29,410 nt of DNA, taken from the UHGV virus genome UHGV-0009628, one strand, 5' to 3'. Positions 2,949 through 29,410 of this stretch are shown here, piece by piece. The number at the start of each line of letters is the position of its first letter. The stretch's first letter is position 1. The notes under the pieces are model-generated. The model was not told the origin of the DNA. It was given only the letters and a program-made list of their open reading frames with translations, and did not search any database. Source of the DNA: a virus. The position numbers were made by a program, and so were the translations under genes.

Positions 2949-3250
2949 TGTCCTGTTCTCGTTCAGTTGTATTACTGAATAACGCCTTAAAAATCACCGT
3001 TATGAAAAATGGCGATCTATCTCTTATTCAACTTGGTCTTGATAAAGAAAAACGCGAAATAACTGAGTCTGTTATCGCGATTTATCAGAACGAATTAAAT
3101 CTCCTGTCTGATGTGGTCAATTTACTTGTTAAACGCGCTGTATTTCACAAGCAAATCTCCTCCGTGGATGAACTGACGAAATTAACGACAGAAATTGCCA
3201 GCTATTGCGCTGATGAATTTAAAAAACTTAACGACAAAAGGAACTGGTAA
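2948..3250 (+). CDS. Early-operon hypothetical protein (orf81 position)
   Basis: 100 aa from ATG at 2948 (TGATG overlap with the preceding stop); track start 2945 is TTG. Synteny only. Confidence 0.6.
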   Translation: MSCSRSVVLLNNALKITVMKNGDLSLIQLGLDKEKREITESVIAIYQNELNLLSDVVNLLVKRAVFHKQISSVDELTKLTTEIASYCADEFKKLNDKRNW

Positions 3251-3474
3251 TGCCGGACAACGTAGATTTTATTCAGGAACAACAGGCTGAATTACTGGAG
3301 CGTCAGATTAACGCGGCAAGGGTAAAACATTGCGGAGCTTCTGCGCTGGTTTGCGAAGAGTGTGACGCGCCAATACCTGCTGCCCGTCGTGCGGCTTATC
3401 CGTCAGCCACGCGTTGTGTTTCCTGCCAGTCAGTCTTTGAAGCAAAAAACAAACATTACCGGAGAACGGCATGA
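3250..3474 (+). CDS. TraR/DksA-type C4 zinc-finger protein (orf82 position)
   Basis: 74 aa; two Cys pairs CEECDAPIPAARRAAYPSATRCVSCQ form a C-x2-C...C-x2-C finger; TAATG coupling with the upstream ORF. Confidence 0.75.
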   Translation: MPDNVDFIQEQQAELLERQINAARVKHCGASALVCEECDAPIPAARRAAYPSATRCVSCQSVFEAKNKHYRRTA

Positions 3475-3746
3475 GTATTCGTATTGAAATTGGCGAACGT
3501 TATGTCGTTACCAGTGACAGCTTTCAGTTTATTCTCCACGAGAAAAAGAGAGCGGAAAGCGGTAAAAACGCCGGTCAGGAATGGCTGGCGGTGGTTGGTT
3601 ATTATCCGAAATTAAGCCAGCTCGTTTCCGGCCTGATGCATCACGATATTCTGACCGGAAGCGCAAAGTCTTTTGCTGATTTAAACGCGCAGGTTGAGCA
3701 ACTCAGCAGGCGTTGTTCAGAGGCTTTTGGCTCATATGGCCGTTAA
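3471..3746 (+). CDS. Early-operon hypothetical protein (orf83 position)
   Basis: 91 aa, ATG with GGAGAA SD; stop overlaps the start of A. Confidence 0.6.
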   Translation: MSIRIEIGERYVVTSDSFQFILHEKKRAESGKNAGQEWLAVVGYYPKLSQLVSGLMHHDILTGSAKSFADLNAQVEQLSRRCSEAFGSYGR

Positions 3747-5811
3747 AGCCTCCGGGCGTTTTGTCCCTCCTTCAGCATTTGCTGCAGGCACCGGTAAGGC
3801 GTTTACCGGTGCTTATGCATGGAACGCGCCACGCGAGGCCGTCGGGCGCGAAAGACCCCTTACACGTGACGAGATGCGTCAGGTGCAAGGTGTTTTATCC
3901 ACGATTAACCGCCTGCCTTACTTTTTGCGCTCGCTGTTTACTTCACGCTATGACTACATCCGGCGCAATAAAAGCCCGGTACACGGGTTTTATTTCCTCA
4001 CATCCACTTTTCAGCGTCGTTTATGGCCGCGCATTGAGCGTGTGAATCAGCGCCATGAAATGAACACCGACGCGTCGTTACTGTTTCTGGCAGAGCGTGA
4101 CCACTATGCGCGCCTGCCGGGAATGAATGACAAGGAGCTGAAAAAGTTTGCTGCCCGTATCTCATCGCAGCTTTTCATGATGTATGAGGAACTCAGCGAT
4201 GCCTGGGTGGATGCGCATGGCGAAAAAGAATCGCTGTTTACGGATGAGGCGCAGGCTCACCTCTATGGTCATGTTGCTGGCGCTGCACGTGCTTTCAATA
4301 TTTCCCCTCTCTACTGGAAAAAATACCGTAAAGGGCAGATGACCACGAGGCAGGCATATTCTGCCATTGCCCGTCTGTTTAACGATGAGTGGTGGACTCA
4401 TCAGCTTAAAGGCCAGCGTATGCGCTGGCATGAAGCGTTACTGATAGCTGTCGGGGAGGTCAATAAAGACCGTTCTCCTTATGCCAGTAAACACGCCATT
4501 CGTGATGTGCGTGCGCGCCGCCAGGCAAATCTGGAATTTCTTAAATCGTGTGACCTTGAAAACAGGGAAACCGGCGAGCGCATCGACCTTATCAGTAAGG
4601 TGATGGGCAGTATTTCTAATCCTGAAATTCGCCGGATGGAGCTGATGAACACCATTGCCGGTATTGAGCGTTACGCCGCCGCAGAGGGTGATGTGGGGAT
4701 GTTTATCACGCTGACCGCGCCGTCAAAGTATCACCCGACTCGTCAGGTCAGAAAAGGCGAAAGTAAAACCGTTCAGCTTAATCACGGCTGGAACGATGAG
4801 GCATTTAATCCAAAGGATGCGCAGCGTTATCTCTGCCGTATCTGGAGCCTGATGCGCACGGCATTCAAGGATAATGATTTACAGGTCTACGGTTTGCGAG
4901 TCGTCGAGCCACACCACGACGGAACGCCGCACTGGCATATGATGCTTTTTTGTAATCCACGCCAGCGTAACCAGATTATCGAAATCATGCGTCGCTATGC
5001 GCTCAAAGAGGATGGCGACGAAAGAGGAGCCGCGCGAAACCGTTTTCAGGCAAAACATCTTAACCGGGGCGGTGCTGCGGGGTATATCGCGAAATACATC
5101 TCAAAAAACATCGATGGCTATGCACTGGATGGTCAGCTCGATAACGATACCGGCAGGCCGCTGAAAGATACTGCTGCGGCTGTTACCGCATGGGCGTCAA
5201 CGTGGCGCATCCCGCAATTTAAAACGGTTGGCCTGCCGACAATGGGGGCTTACCGTGAACTACGCAAATTGCCTCGCGGCGTCAGCATTGCTGATGAGTT
5301 TGACGAACGAGTTGAGGCTGCACGTGCCGCCGCAGACAGTGGTGATTTTGCGTTGTATATCAGCGCGCAGGGTGGGGCAAATGTTCCGCGTGATTGCCAG
5401 ACTGTCAGAGTCGCCCGTAGCCCGTCGGATGACGTTAACGAGTACGAGGAAGAAGTCGGGAGAGTGGTCGGCATTTACGCGCCGCATCTCGGCGCGCGTC
5501 ATATTCATATCACCAGAACGACGGACTGGCGCATTGTGCCGAAAGTTCCGGTCGTTGAGCCTTTGACTTTAAAAAGCGGCATCGCCGCGCCTCGGAGTCC
5601 TGTCAATAACTGTGGAAAGCTCACTGGTGGTGATACTTCGTTACCGGCTCCCACACCTTCTGAGCACGCTGCAGCAGTGTTGGATTTGATTGATATAGGG
5701 GTGGTTAGTTGGAATGATGCTGAGGTGATGACAGTTCTTAGGAAGAGATTAAAAGATTACTCACGGGAATTGATGGTATTCAAAGGAAGGGCTAGCCAAC
5801 GCCCAATCTGA
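3736..5811 (+). CDS. A: Rolling-circle replication initiator A (phiX174 gpA-like nickase)
   Basis: 691 aa from ATG at 3736 (track start 3694 is TTG). Motifs GTPHWHMMLF (HUH-type metal-binding His pair) and AAGYIAKYISKNIDG (catalytic Tyr pair) typical of RCR initiators; position after orf83 as in P2. Confidence 0.9.
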   Translation: MAVKASGRFVPPSAFAAGTGKAFTGAYAWNAPREAVGRERPLTRDEMRQVQGVLSTINRLPYFLRSLFTSRYDYIRRNKSPVHGFYFLTSTFQRRLWPRIERVNQRHEMNTDASLLFLAERDHYARLPGMNDKELKKFAARISSQLFMMYEELSDAWVDAHGEKESLFTDEAQAHLYGHVAGAARAFNISPLYWKKYRKGQMTTRQAYSAIARLFNDEWWTHQLKGQRMRWHEALLIAVGEVNKDRSPYASKHAIRDVRARRQANLEFLKSCDLENRETGERIDLISKVMGSISNPEIRRMELMNTIAGIERYAAAEGDVGMFITLTAPSKYHPTRQVRKGESKTVQLNHGWNDEAFNPKDAQRYLCRIWSLMRTAFKDNDLQVYGLRVVEPHHDGTPHWHMMLFCNPRQRNQIIEIMRRYALKEDGDERGAARNRFQAKHLNRGGAAGYIAKYISKNIDGYALDGQLDNDTGRPLKDTAAAVTAWASTWRIPQFKTVGLPTMGAYRELRKLPRGVSIADEFDERVEAARAAADSGDFALYISAQGGANVPRDCQTVRVARSPSDDVNEYEEEVGRVVGIYAPHLGARHIHITRTTDWRIVPKVPVVEPLTLKSGIAAPRSPVNNCGKLTGGDTSLPAPTPSEHAAAVLDLIDIGVVSWNDAEVMTVLRKRLKDYSRELMVFKGRASQRPI

Positions 5812-8516: not shown

Positions 8517-9551
8517 TCAGCCGTTGTCAGTGTCCAGTGAGTAGTTTTTAAAGCGGATGACCTCCTGACCGAGCCAGCCGTTTATTTCCCGAATCCTGTC
8601 CTGTAACGGGATAAGCTCATTGCGGACAAAGACCTTTGCCACTTTTTCAATATCACCCAGTGACCCGACGTTCTCCGGCTTGCCCCCCATCAACTGAAAG
8701 GGGATGCGGTGCGCGTCCAGCAGGTCAGCGGCGCTGGCTTTTTTGATATTAAAAAAATCGTCCTTCGTCGCCACTTCACTGAGGGGGATAATTTTAATGC
8801 CGTCGGCTTTCCCCTGTGGGGCATAGAGAAACAGGTTTTTAAAGTTGTTGCGGCCTTTCGACTTCACCATGTTTTCGCGGAGCATTTCGATATCGTTGCG
8901 ATCCTGCACGGCATCAGTGACGTACATGATATATCCGGCATGAGCGCCGTTTTCGTAATACTTGCGGCGGAACAGCGTGGCCGACTCATTCAGCCAGGCA
9001 GAATTAAGGGCGCTGAGATATTCCGGCAGGCCGTACAACTCCTGATTAATATCCGGCTCCAGCAGGTGAAACACGGAACCGGGCGCGAAGGCTGTCGGCT
9101 CGTTGAAGGACGGCACCCACCAGTAAACATCCTCTTCCACACCACGGCGGGTATATTTTGCCGGTGAGGTTTCCAGTCTGATGACCTTACCGGTGGTGCT
9201 GTAACGCTTTTCCAGAAACGCATTACCGAACACCAGAAAATCCAGCACAAAGCGGCTGAAATCCTGCTGGGAAAGCCACGGATGCGGGATAAATGTCGAG
9301 GCCAGAATATTGCGTTTGACGTAAATCGGGGAGCTGTGATGCACGGCAGCACGCAGGCTTTTTGCCAGACCGGTAAAGCTGACCGGTGGCTCATACCATC
9401 TGCCGTTACTGATGCACTCGACGTAATCCAGAATGTCACGGCGGTCGAGTACCGGCACCGGCTCACCAAAGGTGAATGCTTCCATTTTCGGGGCGCTGGC
9501 GGTCATTGTTTTTGCCGCAGGTTGCGGTGTTTTCCCTTTTTTCTTGCTCAT
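8517..9551 (-). CDS. Q: Portal protein
   Basis: 344 aa, same length and position as P2 Q; ATG overlaps the P stop (ATGA). Confidence 0.9.
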   Translation of the reverse strand: MSKKKGKTPQPAAKTMTASAPKMEAFTFGEPVPVLDRRDILDYVECISNGRWYEPPVSFTGLAKSLRAAVHHSSPIYVKRNILASTFIPHPWLSQQDFSRFVLDFLVFGNAFLEKRYSTTGKVIRLETSPAKYTRRGVEEDVYWWVPSFNEPTAFAPGSVFHLLEPDINQELYGLPEYLSALNSAWLNESATLFRRKYYENGAHAGYIMYVTDAVQDRNDIEMLRENMVKSKGRNNFKNLFLYAPQGKADGIKIIPLSEVATKDDFFNIKKASAADLLDAHRIPFQLMGGKPENVGSLGDIEKVAKVFVRNELIPLQDRIREINGWLGQEVIRFKNYSLDTDNG

Positions 9552-11323
9552 CAGTAAAACTCCAGAATGGTGGATGTCAGCGGGGTGCTGATACCGGCGG
9601 TGAGTGGCTCATTTAACAGGGCGTGCATGGTCGCCCAGGCGAGGTCGGCGTGGCTGGCTTCCTCGCTGCGGCTGGCCTCATAGGTGGCACTGCGTCCGCT
9701 GCTGGTCATGGTCTTGCGGATAGCCATAAACGAGCTGGTGATGTCGGTGGCGCTGACGTCATATTCCAGACAGCCACGGCGGATAACGTCTTTTGCCTTG
9801 AGCACCATTGCGGTTTTCATTTCCGGCGTGTAGCGGATGTCGCGCGCGGCAGGATAGAACGAGCGCACGAGCTGGAACACGCCGACACCGAGGCCGGTGG
9901 CATCAATACCGATGTATTCGACGTTGTATTTTTCGGTGAGTTTGCGGATGGATTCCGCCTGGGTGGCAAAGTCCATGCCTTTCCACTGGTGACGCTCAAG
10001 TATTCTGAATTTGCCACCGGCAACCACCGGCGGTGCCAGTACCACGCATCCGGCGCTGTCGCCACGGTGTGACGGGTCGTAACCAATCCAGACCGGGCGT
10101 GAGCCGAACGGATTGGCGGCAAACGGCGCATAGTCTTCCCATTCTTCCAGCGTGTCGACCATGCAGCGTTGCAACTCCTCGAACGGGAACACCGACGCCT
10201 TGTCGTCAACAAATTCACACATGAACAGGTTTTTAAAATCGTCGGCGCTGTTTTCGCGTTTGAGCTGCTCAATGTCGAACAGCGTGCAGCCGCCTTTCAG
10301 GGCGTCCTCAATGGTGACAATCTGCCGCCACTGGCCGTCCGCACAGAGAAGACCTCCGGCAAGTGCGTTATGACTGACGTCGATTTCCACGCGTTCAGCG
10401 GCGCTGGCGCGTCCCCGGTTAAACAGTTCACCCGACCAGAACGGGTAGGCGTCGTGCGCCAGCGTGGACGGGGTGGAGAAATAGGTCGAACGCAGGTGAC
10501 TCTGTGAGGCCATGCCTGATGCCACCTTACGCAGTACCTGAAAATTCGGGATCCAGAAAATCTCATCGACGTACAGGTCGCCGTTATGGCTCTGCGCGGT
10601 GTTGGAGTTGGTGCCGAGAAAAATCAGTTTTGCGCCATTATTGCCCAGGACAATCGGGTCACCGGTCAGGTCAACGTCAACCAGACGGGCAAAGGCGATG
10701 ATGTATTCGCGGAACACATACGCCTGCGTTTTACTGGCCGACAGAAAAATCTGGTTATGGCCGGTTTTCAGGGCGCGCAGCAGCGCCTCGCGGGAAAAAT
10801 AAAACGTCGCGCCAATCTGGCGGGATTTCAGGATATCGCGGATGCGGTGCTCAAGCCCGGCGCGATACCAGTGCAACTGATATTCGAAAGACTGCTCAAA
10901 GAAAATCTGCTCCAGCTTTTCGATGGCTTCGTCACTGAAAAAATTCTTTTTCGGTTTGCGACGCCCGCCTTTGTTGCGGTTAGCGACGTTCGGATTAAGG
11001 TCTGCCTCGTTGCCGGTCTGGCTGTAACGGTTGACCCGTGCCAGCCGTTCAATCTGGCGTCCGAGCAGGTCAATTTCCTTGAAGTCACCGCCGGTTTTCT
11101 GCGGTTTGATGATGAGCTGGGTCAGCCGCGCTTCCAGACTCATTTCGACACGGCTGATGGGGGCAACGCTGTCCCAGCCGTCGCGCTGTTTCCAGCTCTG
11201 CACCGTCGGGCGTTTCATCTGCAACATGGCGGCAATCTGCGGCACGGAAAACCCCTGCCAGTACAGCAGCGCCGCCTGACGACGTGGGTCGTGTAAAAGA
11301 GTGGTGTCTGTGGTGATGGTCAT
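9551..11323 (-). CDS. P: Terminase large (ATPase) subunit
   Basis: 590 aa from ATG at 11323 with GAGG SD (track start 11353 is TTG); N-terminus MTITTDTTLL; same length and position as P2 P, divergent from O. Confidence 0.9.
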   Translation of the reverse strand: MTITTDTTLLHDPRRQAALLYWQGFSVPQIAAMLQMKRPTVQSWKQRDGWDSVAPISRVEMSLEARLTQLIIKPQKTGGDFKEIDLLGRQIERLARVNRYSQTGNEADLNPNVANRNKGGRRKPKKNFFSDEAIEKLEQIFFEQSFEYQLHWYRAGLEHRIRDILKSRQIGATFYFSREALLRALKTGHNQIFLSASKTQAYVFREYIIAFARLVDVDLTGDPIVLGNNGAKLIFLGTNSNTAQSHNGDLYVDEIFWIPNFQVLRKVASGMASQSHLRSTYFSTPSTLAHDAYPFWSGELFNRGRASAAERVEIDVSHNALAGGLLCADGQWRQIVTIEDALKGGCTLFDIEQLKRENSADDFKNLFMCEFVDDKASVFPFEELQRCMVDTLEEWEDYAPFAANPFGSRPVWIGYDPSHRGDSAGCVVLAPPVVAGGKFRILERHQWKGMDFATQAESIRKLTEKYNVEYIGIDATGLGVGVFQLVRSFYPAARDIRYTPEMKTAMVLKAKDVIRRGCLEYDVSATDITSSFMAIRKTMTSSGRSATYEASRSEEASHADLAWATMHALLNEPLTAGISTPLTSTILEFY

Positions 11324-11353
11324 GAATACCTCGCCGTGATGAATACACGGCAA

Positions 11354-11496
11354 GGCTACTGAGTCGCGCCCCGCGATTCGCTAAGGTGCTGTTGTGTCAG
11401 TGATAAGCCATCCGGGACTGATGGCGGAGGATGCGCATCGTCGGGAAACTGATGCCGACATGTGACTCCTCTAATCACTATTCAGGACTCCTGACA
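11354..11496. promoter_or_regulatory. Divergent late-promoter region between P and O (expected Ogr-dependent promoters); dyad TCAGT-N15-ACTGA at 11397-11421
   Basis: Position by synteny with P2; dyad read from sequence. No exact TGT-N12-ACA element found. Confidence 0.3.
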
Positions 11497-12351
11497 ATGG
11501 CAAAAAAAGTCTCAAAATTCTTTCGTATCGGCGTTGAGGGTGACACCTGTGACGGGCGTGTCATCAGTGCGCAGGATATTCAGGAAATGGCCGAAACCTT
11601 TGACCCGCGAGTCTATGGTTGCCGCATTAACCTGGAACATCTGCGCGGCATCCTGCCTGACGGTATTTTTAAGCGTTATGGCGATGTGGCCGAACTGAAG
11701 GCCGAAAAGATTGACGATGATTCGGCGCTGAAAGGCAAATGGGCGCTGTTTGCGAAAATTACCCCGACCGATGACCTTATCGCGATGAACAAGGCCGCGC
11801 AGAAGGTCTATACCTCAATGGAAATTCAGCCGAACTTTGCCAATACCGGCAAATGTTATCTGGTGGGTCTGGCCGTCACCGATGACCCGGCAAGCCTCGG
11901 CACGGAATACCTGGAATTCTGCCGCACGGCAAAACACAACCCCCTGAACCGCTTCAAATTAAGCCCTGAAAACCTGATTTCAGTGGCAACGCCCGTTGAG
12001 CTGGAATTTGAAGACCTGCCTGAAACCGTGTTCACCGCCCTGACCGAAAAGGTGAAGTCCATTTTTGGCCGCAAACAGGCCAGCGATGACGCCCGTCTGA
12101 ATGACGTGCATGAAGCGGTGACCGCTGTTGCTGAACATGTGCAGGAAAAACTGAGCGCCACTGAGCAGCGCCTCGCTGAGATGGAAACCGCTTTTTCCGC
12201 ACTTAAGCAGGATGTGACTGACAGGGCGGATGAAACCAGCCAGGCATTCACCCGCCTGAAAAACAGTCTCGACCACACCGAAAGTCTGACCCAGCAGCGC
12301 CGCAGCAAGGCCACCGGCGGTGGCGGTGACGCCCTGATGACGAACTGCTGA
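11497..12351 (+). CDS. O: Capsid scaffolding protein
   Basis: 284 aa from ATG at 11497 with AGGA SD; N-terminus MAKKVSKFFRIGVEGDTCDGR matches P2 gpO as I recall it (track start 11431 gives 306 aa). Confidence 0.9.
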   Translation: MAKKVSKFFRIGVEGDTCDGRVISAQDIQEMAETFDPRVYGCRINLEHLRGILPDGIFKRYGDVAELKAEKIDDDSALKGKWALFAKITPTDDLIAMNKAAQKVYTSMEIQPNFANTGKCYLVGLAVTDDPASLGTEYLEFCRTAKHNPLNRFKLSPENLISVATPVELEFEDLPETVFTALTEKVKSIFGRKQASDDARLNDVHEAVTAVAEHVQEKLSATEQRLAEMETAFSALKQDVTDRADETSQAFTRLKNSLDHTESLTQQRRSKATGGGGDALMTNC

Positions 12352-16263: not shown

Positions 16264-16676
16264 TGATTGTGCTGGTCGTGTTGTTATCGCTGGCGGTGGC
16301 CGGTCTGTTTCTGGTGAAACACAAAAATGCCAGCCTGCGCGCCTCGCTGGACAGGGCGAACAACGTCGCCAGCGGTCAGCAGACGACCATCACCATGCTG
16401 AAAAATCAGCTTCATGTTGCGCTCACCAGGGCAGATAAAAACGAGCTGGCGCAGGTGGCACTGCGTCAGGAACTGGAGAACGCCGCGAAACGTGAAGCAC
16501 AGCGCGAGAAAACCATCACGAGGTTACTGAATGAAAACGAAGATTTTCGCCGCTGGTACGGTGCTGACCTGCCTGATGCTGTGCGCCGGTTGCACCAGCG
16601 CCCGGCCTGCACCGACGCCAGTGATTGTCCACAACGCCTGCCCGAAAGTGAGCCTTTGCCCGATGCCGGGCAGTGA
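16251..16676 (+). CDS. lysB: Rz-like inner-membrane spanin subunit LysB
   Basis: 141 aa, N-terminal TM segment then charged coiled-coil-like region; same length and position as P2 LysB. Confidence 0.85.
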   Translation: MSRLMIVLVVLLSLAVAGLFLVKHKNASLRASLDRANNVASGQQTTITMLKNQLHVALTRADKNELAQVALRQELENAAKREAQREKTITRLLNENEDFRRWYGADLPDAVRRLHQRPACTDASDCPQRLPESEPLPDAGQ

Positions 16677-17251: not shown

Positions 17252-17696
17252 GTTTAAGCGTTTTGAAGACCGGCTGACCGGACTGGTTGAATCGCTGTCA
17301 CCGTCAGGGCGTCGGCGACTGAGCGCCGAACTGGCAAAACGTCTGCGGCAGAGTCAGCAGCGTCGGGTGATGGCACAGAAAGCCCCGGACGGCACACCCT
17401 ACGCGCCACGCCAGCAGCAGAGCGCCAGAAAAAAGACCGGTCGCGTTAAGCGAAAAATGTTTGCGAAACTTATCACCAGTCGCTTTTTGCATATCCGCGC
17501 CAGCCCGGAACAGGCATCAATGGAGTTTTACGGCGGGAAGTCACCGAAAATCGCCAGTGTGCATCAGTTCGGTCTGTCGGAAGAAACCCGGAAAGACGGT
17601 AAGAAAATTGATTATCCGGCGCGTCCTCTGCTCGGCTTTACCGGTGAGGATGTGCAGATGATTGAAGAGATTATTCTGGCTCACCTCGACCGTTAG
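17244..17696 (+). CDS. S: Tail completion protein S
   Basis: 150 aa, same length and position as P2 S. Confidence 0.88.
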   Translation: MNEFKRFEDRLTGLVESLSPSGRRRLSAELAKRLRQSQQRRVMAQKAPDGTPYAPRQQQSARKKTGRVKRKMFAKLITSRFLHIRASPEQASMEFYGGKSPKIASVHQFGLSEETRKDGKKIDYPARPLLGFTGEDVQMIEEIILAHLDR

Positions 17697-17728
17697 TTGT
17701 GCCATTCCTGACACCTCATCGTCACATT

Positions 17729-17750
17729 GCCGCCGGTATGACCCGGCGGC
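17729..17750 (+). other. GC-rich hairpin (8-bp perfect stem GCCGCCGG/CCGGCGGC, 6-nt loop) between S and V; possible operon-boundary terminator or attenuator
   Basis: Stem-loop read from sequence; the downstream tract ATCCTTCCCGTT is only weakly U-rich, so intrinsic terminator function is uncertain. Confidence 0.35.
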
Positions 17751-17762
17751 ATCCTTCCCGTT

Positions 17763-22477: not shown

Positions 22478-22685
22478 GCCATTCAATATCTGACGTACCG
22501 GAAGTATCGGACCGCTCCGGTGCGTACAGGTAATCCAGCCACAAATTATATTGCGCCAGTACCTCAGACCTGCCGGGCTATTGCTTACTGTTCATGTATT
22601 TATTGGCCTGATTAATCAGTAGCTGTCTTTCTGGTCGTGTGGATCCTGCAAATCCTGAATGGTCGGAAATACCGCAATAAATACA

Positions 22686-22710
22686 GGCGGGCTGATTGCC
22701 CGCCTTTTTT
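22686..22710 (+). terminator. Rho-independent terminator ending the V-to-G tail operon
   Basis: GGCGGGC-TGATT-GCCCGCC hairpin followed by TTTTTT on the plus strand. Confidence 0.8.
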
Positions 22711-22807
22711 ATCTGTTGTTTCATCCCCTGACCAGCCAGGACAAATAGCATCTCATGCCCTGCACAACTGAAAATACCACTCACCCATTAACCACGGAGT
22801 TAAACGG

Positions 22808-23998
22808 ATGAGTGACTATCATCACGGCGTGCAGGTGCTGGAGATTAACGACGGCACACGCGTCATTTCCACCGTATCCACTGCCATTGTCGGCATGGTC
22901 TGTACGGCCAGCGATGCGGATGCGGAAACCTTCCCCCTCAATAAACCGGTGCTGATTACCAATGTGCAGAGCGCAATTGCAAAGGCCGGTAAAAAAGGCA
23001 CGCTGGCGGCGTCGTTGCAGGCCATCGCTGACCAGTCAAAACCGGTCACCGTTGTTGTACGTGTGGAAGACGGCACCGGCGAAGACGAAGAAACGAAACT
23101 TGCGCAGACCGTTTCCAATATCATCGGCACCACCGACGAAAACGGTCAGTACACCGGACTGAAAGCCCTGCTGGCGGCGGAGTCGGTAACCGGTGTTAAA
23201 CCGCGTATTCTCGGCGTGCCGGGACTGGACACCAAAGAGGTGGCTGTTGCACTGGCATCAGTCTGTCAGAAGCTGCGCGCTTTCGGATATATCAGTGCAT
23301 GGGGCTGTAAGACCATTTCCGAGGTGAAAGCCTACCGCCAGAATTTCAGCCAGCGTGAGCTGATGGTCATCTGGCCGGATTTCCTCGCATGGGATACGGT
23401 CACCAGTACCACCGCCACCACGTATGCCACCGCCCGTGCGCTGGGCATGCGCGCTAAAATCGACCAGGAGCAGGGCTGGCATAAAACGCTGTCCAATGTC
23501 GGGGTGAACGGTGTTACCGGCATCAGCGCATCCGTCTTCTGGGATTTGCAGGAGTCCGGCACCGATGCTGACCTGCTTAACGAGTCAGGCGTCACTACGC
23601 TGATTCGCCGCGACGGTTTCCGCTTCTGGGGTAACCGTACCTGCTCCGATGACCCGCTGTTCCTCTTTGAAAACTACACCCGCACCGCGCAGGTGCTGGC
23701 CGATACGATGGCTGAGGCGCACATGTGGGCGGTGGACAAGCCCATCACCGCAACGCTGATTCGCGACATCGTTGACGGCATCAATGCCAAATTCCGTGAG
23801 CTGAAAACAAACGGCTATATCGTGGATGCGACCTGCTGGTTCAGCGAAGAATCCAACGATGCGGAAACCCTCAAGGCCGGAAAACTGTATATCGACTACG
23901 ACTATACCCCGGTGCCTCCTCTCGAAAACCTGACCCTGCGCCAGCGTATCACCGATAAATATCTGGCAAATCTGGTCACCTCGGTTAACAGCAATTAA
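22808..23998 (+). CDS. FI: Contractile tail sheath protein
   Basis: 396 aa, same length and position as P2 FI. Confidence 0.92.
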   Translation: MSDYHHGVQVLEINDGTRVISTVSTAIVGMVCTASDADAETFPLNKPVLITNVQSAIAKAGKKGTLAASLQAIADQSKPVTVVVRVEDGTGEDEETKLAQTVSNIIGTTDENGQYTGLKALLAAESVTGVKPRILGVPGLDTKEVAVALASVCQKLRAFGYISAWGCKTISEVKAYRQNFSQRELMVIWPDFLAWDTVTSTTATTYATARALGMRAKIDQEQGWHKTLSNVGVNGVTGISASVFWDLQESGTDADLLNESGVTTLIRRDGFRFWGNRTCSDDPLFLFENYTRTAQVLADTMAEAHMWAVDKPITATLIRDIVDGINAKFRELKTNGYIVDATCWFSEESNDAETLKAGKLYIDYDYTPVPPLENLTLRQRITDKYLANLVTSVNSN

Positions 23999-29191: not shown

Positions 29192-29410
29192 ATGTTTCAT
29201 TGTCCTTTATGCCAGCATGCCGCACATGCGCGTACAAGTCGCTATATCACTGACACGACAAAAGAGCGTTATCATCAGTGCCAGAACGTGAATTGCAGCG
29301 CCACGTTCATCACTTATGAGTCGGTACAGCGATACATTGTGAAGCCGGGAGAAGTCCACGCCGTAAGGCCGCACCCGTTGCCATCAGGGCAGCAAATTAT
29401 GTGGATGTAA
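29192..29410 (+). CDS. ogr: Late-gene transcription activator Ogr (zinc-finger)
   Basis: 72 aa from ATG at 29192 with GGAAGAGG SD (track start 29129 is TTG); MFHCPLCQHAAHARTSRYITDTTKERYHQCQNVNCSATF carries the C-x2-C...C-x4-C finger and matches P2 Ogr as I recall it. Stop codon is the last three bases of the window. Confidence 0.9.
   Translation: MFHCPLCQHAAHARTSRYITDTTKERYHQCQNVNCSATFITYESVQRYIVKPGEVHAVRPHPLPSGQQIMWM

Follow-up and report, generated by a model that had tools for sequence, protein, structure and literature searches.

The window, the 29,410-nucleotide stretch of DNA analysed here, is, as read from its sequence, a P2-type (Peduovirus) prophage. Its list of ORFs runs in the order int, C, cox, B, A ... 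Q, P / O, N, M, L ... V, W, J, I, H, G / FI, FII, E, T, U, D, ogr. In BLAST against phage genomes, the 901 bp surrounding the P/O region shared 98.9% identity with phage P2, and identities with other peduoviruses reached 99.6%. A search of 5426 complete E. coli genomes found the 173-bp P/O intergenic region at ≥95% identity in 1506 of them, and at ≥99% identity in 1427 records. Compared to P2, the window prophage lacks orf30 and fun(Z), and for this reason its PV region, as well as its PF region upstream of about -25, differs from that of P2. No difference from P2 was found inside the P/O interval 11354-11496.

The interval had been read in the initial annotation as a divergent P/O late promoter of a P2-type phage with an Ogr-type zinc-finger activator. 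This reading was confirmed by alignment to P2 AF063097, in which window positions 11300-11520, spanning pP/pO, were 100% identical to P2, and by the presence of a gene encoding an Ogr_Delta protein. PP and PO of P2 (AF063097 / NC_001895, 3016-3127) thus have the same sequence as the window, the same flanking genes and the same Ogr. P2 coordinates were converted to window coordinates with an offset of +8330, and the P and O start sites and the activator-binding region were transferred from the GenBank P2 annotation through the identical sequence, so that the start sites listed in Table 1 are predicted positions. In the P2 record the annotation of this interval is experimental; by that annotation and by secondary literature, Ogr-dependent transcription and protection of the site by the activator are established for the identical P2 sequence. 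The left edge of the interval needed correction. Position 11354 follows the end of the longest ORF covering gene P, which extends to 11353 in the ORF list, and is not the end of gene P, whose start codon lies at 11323 by identity to P2. Because the edge was taken from the longest ORF, the P start site at 11346 falls outside the interval. The ORF list also gives the O ORF an extra in-frame ATG at 11431, upstream of the O transcript start.

Table 1. Positions of genes, promoter elements and repeats in the window.
Feature	Position	Strand	Basis or remark
Gene P, terminase large subunit	9551-11323	-	P2 gpP CDS 1221-2993 mapped; start codon 11321-11323
P-operon (P, Q) transcription start, promoter PP	11346	-	P2 annotation 3016 mapped
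PP -10-like hexamer, TAGCCT on the minus strand (AGGCTA on the plus strand), -12 to -7	11353-11358	-	Invariant in 7/7 aligned P/O regions; position relative to mapped start
Activator (Ogr/Delta) binding region common to PP and PO	11387-11417	.	P2 misc_feature 3057-3087, 'activator binding site; pO, pP promoters'
Core partial dyad GTTGT-N12-CCATC	11391-11412	.	Includes TGT (11393-95)-N12-CCA (11408-10), one mismatch to TGT-N12-ACA
Dyad of the initial annotation, TCAGT-N15-ACTGA	11397-11421	.	TCAGT 11397-11401, ACTGA 11417-11421, 15-bp spacer
PO -10-like hexamer GAAACT, -12 to -7	11445-11450	+	GGAAACT invariant in 7/7 P/O regions
O-operon transcription start, promoter PO	11457	+	P2 annotation 3127 mapped
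Gene O, capsid scaffold/protease	11497-12351	+	P2 gpO CDS 3167-4021 mapped
PV activator site TGT-N12-ACC	17698-17715	+	GTTGT from 17696; centre 56.5 bp upstream of V ATG 17763
PF activator site TGT-N12-CCA	22717-22734	+	GTTGT from 22715; centre 56.5-58.5 bp upstream of mapped F start 22782-22784
ogr, late-gene activator, 72 aa, C4 zinc finger	29192-29410	+	100% identical to P2 Ogr

With P (terminase) on one side and O (scaffold) on the other, the activator site fronts late morphogenetic operons, and equivalent sites precede V and FI. A sigma-70 consensus scan of the P/O intergenic region did not find a canonical promoter; both PP and PO have -10-like hexamers but no recognisable -35. TGT-N12-ACA is the consensus of the four late promoters of P2 (PMC3931495), and Ogr is known to need contact with the RNA polymerase alpha subunit and to bind conserved inverted repeats whose centres lie near -55 (PMC3152322). 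The P/O region carries TGT-N12-CCA at 11393-11410, which is one mismatch from the consensus and has the normal N12 spacing. The divergent starts, 11346 (-) and 11457 (+), are 111 bp apart, and the centre of this core, 11401.5, lies exactly halfway between them. The dyad is therefore centred at -55.5 for both promoters, which fits the position of about -55 given for Ogr sites in the literature. The corresponding distances from site centre to mapped start are 56.5 bp for V and 56.5-58.5 bp for F.

In agreement with the initial annotation, a pattern scan found TGT-N12-ACA in exact form neither in the P/O region nor ahead of V or FI, and the same holds for P2 itself. The P2 genome has 5 exact matches, somewhat fewer than the 8.5 expected, and none of them falls within its three annotated activator sites; its own pF site is TGT-N12-CCA and its pV site is TGT-N12-CAA. 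As these annotated sites lack an exact match, TGT-N12-ACA is an idealised consensus and not a requirement. In the window, the only exact match (1 observed compared to 7.0 expected) was at 16306-16323, inside the lysis genes (lysB homologue). This stretch has the same sequence as P2 7977-7994. One-mismatch matches numbered 114 in the window compared to 131 expected and are therefore not commoner than chance, so that the assignment of the activator sites rests on their position, their conservation and identity with the annotated P2 site, and not on motif counts. The missing exact element had led the initial annotation to offer two explanations. The first, that the sites are degenerate, was right: all three consist of TGT-N12 followed by a right half-site that differs from ACA at one base, and they lie at about -55 to -57. 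The one-mismatch sites with canonical N12 spacing at 11393-11410 (CCA), 17698-17715 (ACC) and 22717-22734 (CCA) had been overlooked. The second, that the Ogr of this phage has a slightly different spacing preference, was refuted, as the real site has N12 spacing and the window Ogr is identical to P2 Ogr at 72/72 residues. The protein, encoded at the right end of the prophage, matches the Pfam family Ogr_Delta (PF04606) with E = 1.1e-21 and 76.9 bits, against a cut-off of 26.3. With both Ogr and the whole promoter region identical to those of P2, a phage-specific spacing preference is excluded.

An alignment of late promoter regions, which the initial annotation had proposed as a check, revealed a conserved TGT left half-site and conserved -10 blocks, and no conservation of TCAGT/ACTGA. 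For P/O, seven regions were aligned (the window, PSP3, BIS20, GCS667, a Klebsiella phage, a Yersinia enterocolitica phage and Erwinia ENT90), with flanking identity down to ~72%. The only intergenic blocks invariant in 7/7 regions were AGGCTA (the PP -10), CTGT (the left half-site) and GGAAACT (the PO -10). The right half-site was CCA in five of the seven; the Yersinia enterocolitica phage had ACA, giving the exact consensus, and ENT90 had CAA. The spacing from block to block was constant in the seven regions, with a single-base insertion in one phage as the sole exception. PSP3/186-type phages (Eganvirus; activators Pag/B) and the Klebsiella and Yersinia P2-like phages have CTGTTGT-N12-CCA between TAGCCT and GAAACT with the same spacing as the window, whereas their spacer and flanks differ (~80% identity) and the TCAGT/ACTGA arms are absent.

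Related systems elsewhere use the same type of dyad. The Delta/Ogr-responsive promoters Psid and PLL of satellite P4 share both the dyad type and the N12 spacing with the window. P4 has exact TGT-N12-ACA elements at 9493-9510 and 9531-9548 (before sid) and at 9133-9150 (PLL), whereas the right half in the window and in P2 is one base off; Psid comprises two copies of the site, compared to the one site common to PP and PO in the window. In the Ralstonia phages phiRSA1 and phiRSY1, the four late operons are reported to be preceded by TGTTGT-N13-ACAACA and to lack a sigma-70 promoter (PMC5694545). This motif is an extended form of the same dyad (GTTGT/ACAAC), with arms that are longer and more symmetric and a spacer of 13 bp compared to N12 in the window. 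In Erwinia ENT90, the regions upstream of P/O and of FI both have CTGTCC...CAAAC, i.e. TGT-N15-CAA and not TGT-N12-(A/C)CA, and the sequence suggests that the ENT90 activator may recognise a truly different half-site register. Spacing is thus variable among distant relatives (phiRSA1/phiRSY1 and ENT90) but is unaltered in the window. The locus sequence of the Yersinia phage vB_YenM_201.16 (~485-545) has a perfect extended P/O dyad, GTTGT-N12-ACAAC. A second element, GTTGT-N12-CCATC, lies 30 bp downstream of the first and ends just before the PO -10 GAAACT, in an arrangement that recalls the P4 Psid pair.

The V and F promoters of the window were compared to those of P2 in the same way. At PV, the register from site to ATG is that of the annotated P2 pV site, despite unrelated flanks. 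In the window and in most peduoviruses without orf30, GTTGT precedes the V ATG by 67 bp, as in P2, while the flanks are unrelated to those of P2. The PV right half-sites of the window (ACC) and of PSP3 fit the consensus poorly. In the P2 annotation, the V-operon transcript begins at the A of the V ATG (P2 10308), equivalent to 17763 in the window, implying a leaderless V mRNA. The S-V spacer of this prophage, which lacks orf30, is 66 bp, and the first G of the GTTGT at 17696 is also the final base of the S stop codon. A GC-rich hairpin, GCCGCCGG-tatgac-CCGGCGGC, occupies 17729-17750, between the PV activator site and the -10-like CATCCT (17750-17755). The same hairpin sequence occurs in fiAA91-ss, and Klebsiella phage Kp4884-2 retains the stem but has another loop. 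The hairpin may be the O-operon terminator embedded in PV.

The PF site of the window aligns with the annotated P2 pF site, and its distance to the start is as in P2. Around the motif the window and P2 diverge strongly, and the motif is retained in both. In the PF alignment, the window, P2 and L-413C have CCA, and PSP3 and the Klebsiella phage have an exact TGT-N12-ACA at the aligned position. Taken over the PF and PV alignments, GTTGT-N12-(C/A)(C/A)A is kept where the flanks have diverged or are unrelated, and when the three window sites were aligned by their left arms, all of them read GTTGT-N12-(C/A)C(A/C). The k-mers common to the three upstream regions were short uninformative words only (CCTGAC and similar); the k-mer search missed GTTGT at PV because this word begins in the S stop codon. 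P2's fun(Z) is absent from the G-FI spacer (22478-22700), and a good match to known peduoviruses is confined to the last ~185-245 bp before/into FI. No phage record spanning ≥80% of window 22560-22900 was found. The upstream part of this spacer may be a different insert.

The P/O region also contains other inverted repeats. TCAGT-N15-ACTGA is present as the initial annotation had described, but it is not the best dyad of the region. With spacers of between 3 and 30 bp, the 143 bp contain 8 inverted repeats with perfect 5-bp arms, of which it is one. The longest perfect inverted repeat of the P/O region is GCCATC-N7-GATGGC (11407-11425), which overlaps the right half-site. Dinucleotide-preserving shuffles of the same 143 bp contained a mean of 3.5 such repeats; at least one was present in 94% of the shuffles, and 6% reached 8. 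RNA structure was considered for the dyad and rejected, as the dyad lies between the divergent starts and is not transcribed from PP or PO.

It is conceivable, though very improbable, that these additional dyads of the P2 lineage (TCAGT-N15-ACTGA and GCCATC-N7-GATGGC) are a second Ogr register, or a second or host-factor site that biases the sharing of activator between PP and PO. The excess of repeats over the shuffles points in this direction but is marginal and post hoc. The position of GCCATC-N7-GATGGC across the right half-site and its retention in the Klebsiella phage (5/6 kept) are also consistent with such a role, but PSP3/186-type phages have lost the outer arm positions and retain CCA...TGG only. 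The second GTTGT-N12-CCATC copy in the Yersinia enterocolitica relative and the two exact sites at P4 Psid indicate that second sites do exist in the family; the P2 annotation holds no hint of one, and a function as RNA structure is opposed by the position of the dyads between the divergent starts, a region untranscribed from PP and PO. Less probable still is that TCAGT-N15-ACTGA is itself the activator site, recognised by an Ogr that prefers another half-site and spacing than P2 Ogr: it is a perfect 5+5 inverted repeat overlapping the annotated activator region at 11387-11417, but Ogr and the promoter region are identical to those of P2, its centre at 11409 is placed asymmetrically, 48 and 63 bp from the two starts, of the 5 Watson-Crick pairs between its arms the six relatives retain only 0, 1, 0, 2, 2 and 0, and compensatory changes are absent, comparison of the upstream regions found no equivalent dyad at PV or PF, and its occurrence is at chance level in the shuffles. 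By sequence comparison, TCAGT-N15-ACTGA is evidently an unconserved chance feature that lies outside the mechanism.

Collectively, these results indicate that the interval is almost certainly PP/PO, the pair of divergent late promoters of a P2-type prophage, in which one partial dyad serves both promoters through Ogr. By analogy with P2, the zinc-finger protein Ogr of the phage would bind (G)TTGT-N12-CCA(TC) at 11391-11412 late in infection. [quoted passage not shown] Leftward, the packaging/portal operon P-Q would be switched on and, rightward, the head/lysis/tail-completion operon from O through S. The V and F operons would be driven by similar one-mismatch sites at the same distance.

The P/O late promoter feature is real, already well known from P2 and ordinary. 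Nothing about it is unusual, because P2 itself carries the same one-base-off site. The apparent anomaly is a real promoter measured against an idealised consensus, and its biological weight is small. For annotation, the lesson is that late promoters of P2-like phages should be searched for with the relaxed pattern (G)TTGT-N12-[AC][AC][AC], as the exact pattern misses sites, and with a positional constraint of ~55-58 bp upstream of the transcription start or ~65 bp upstream of a leaderless ATG.
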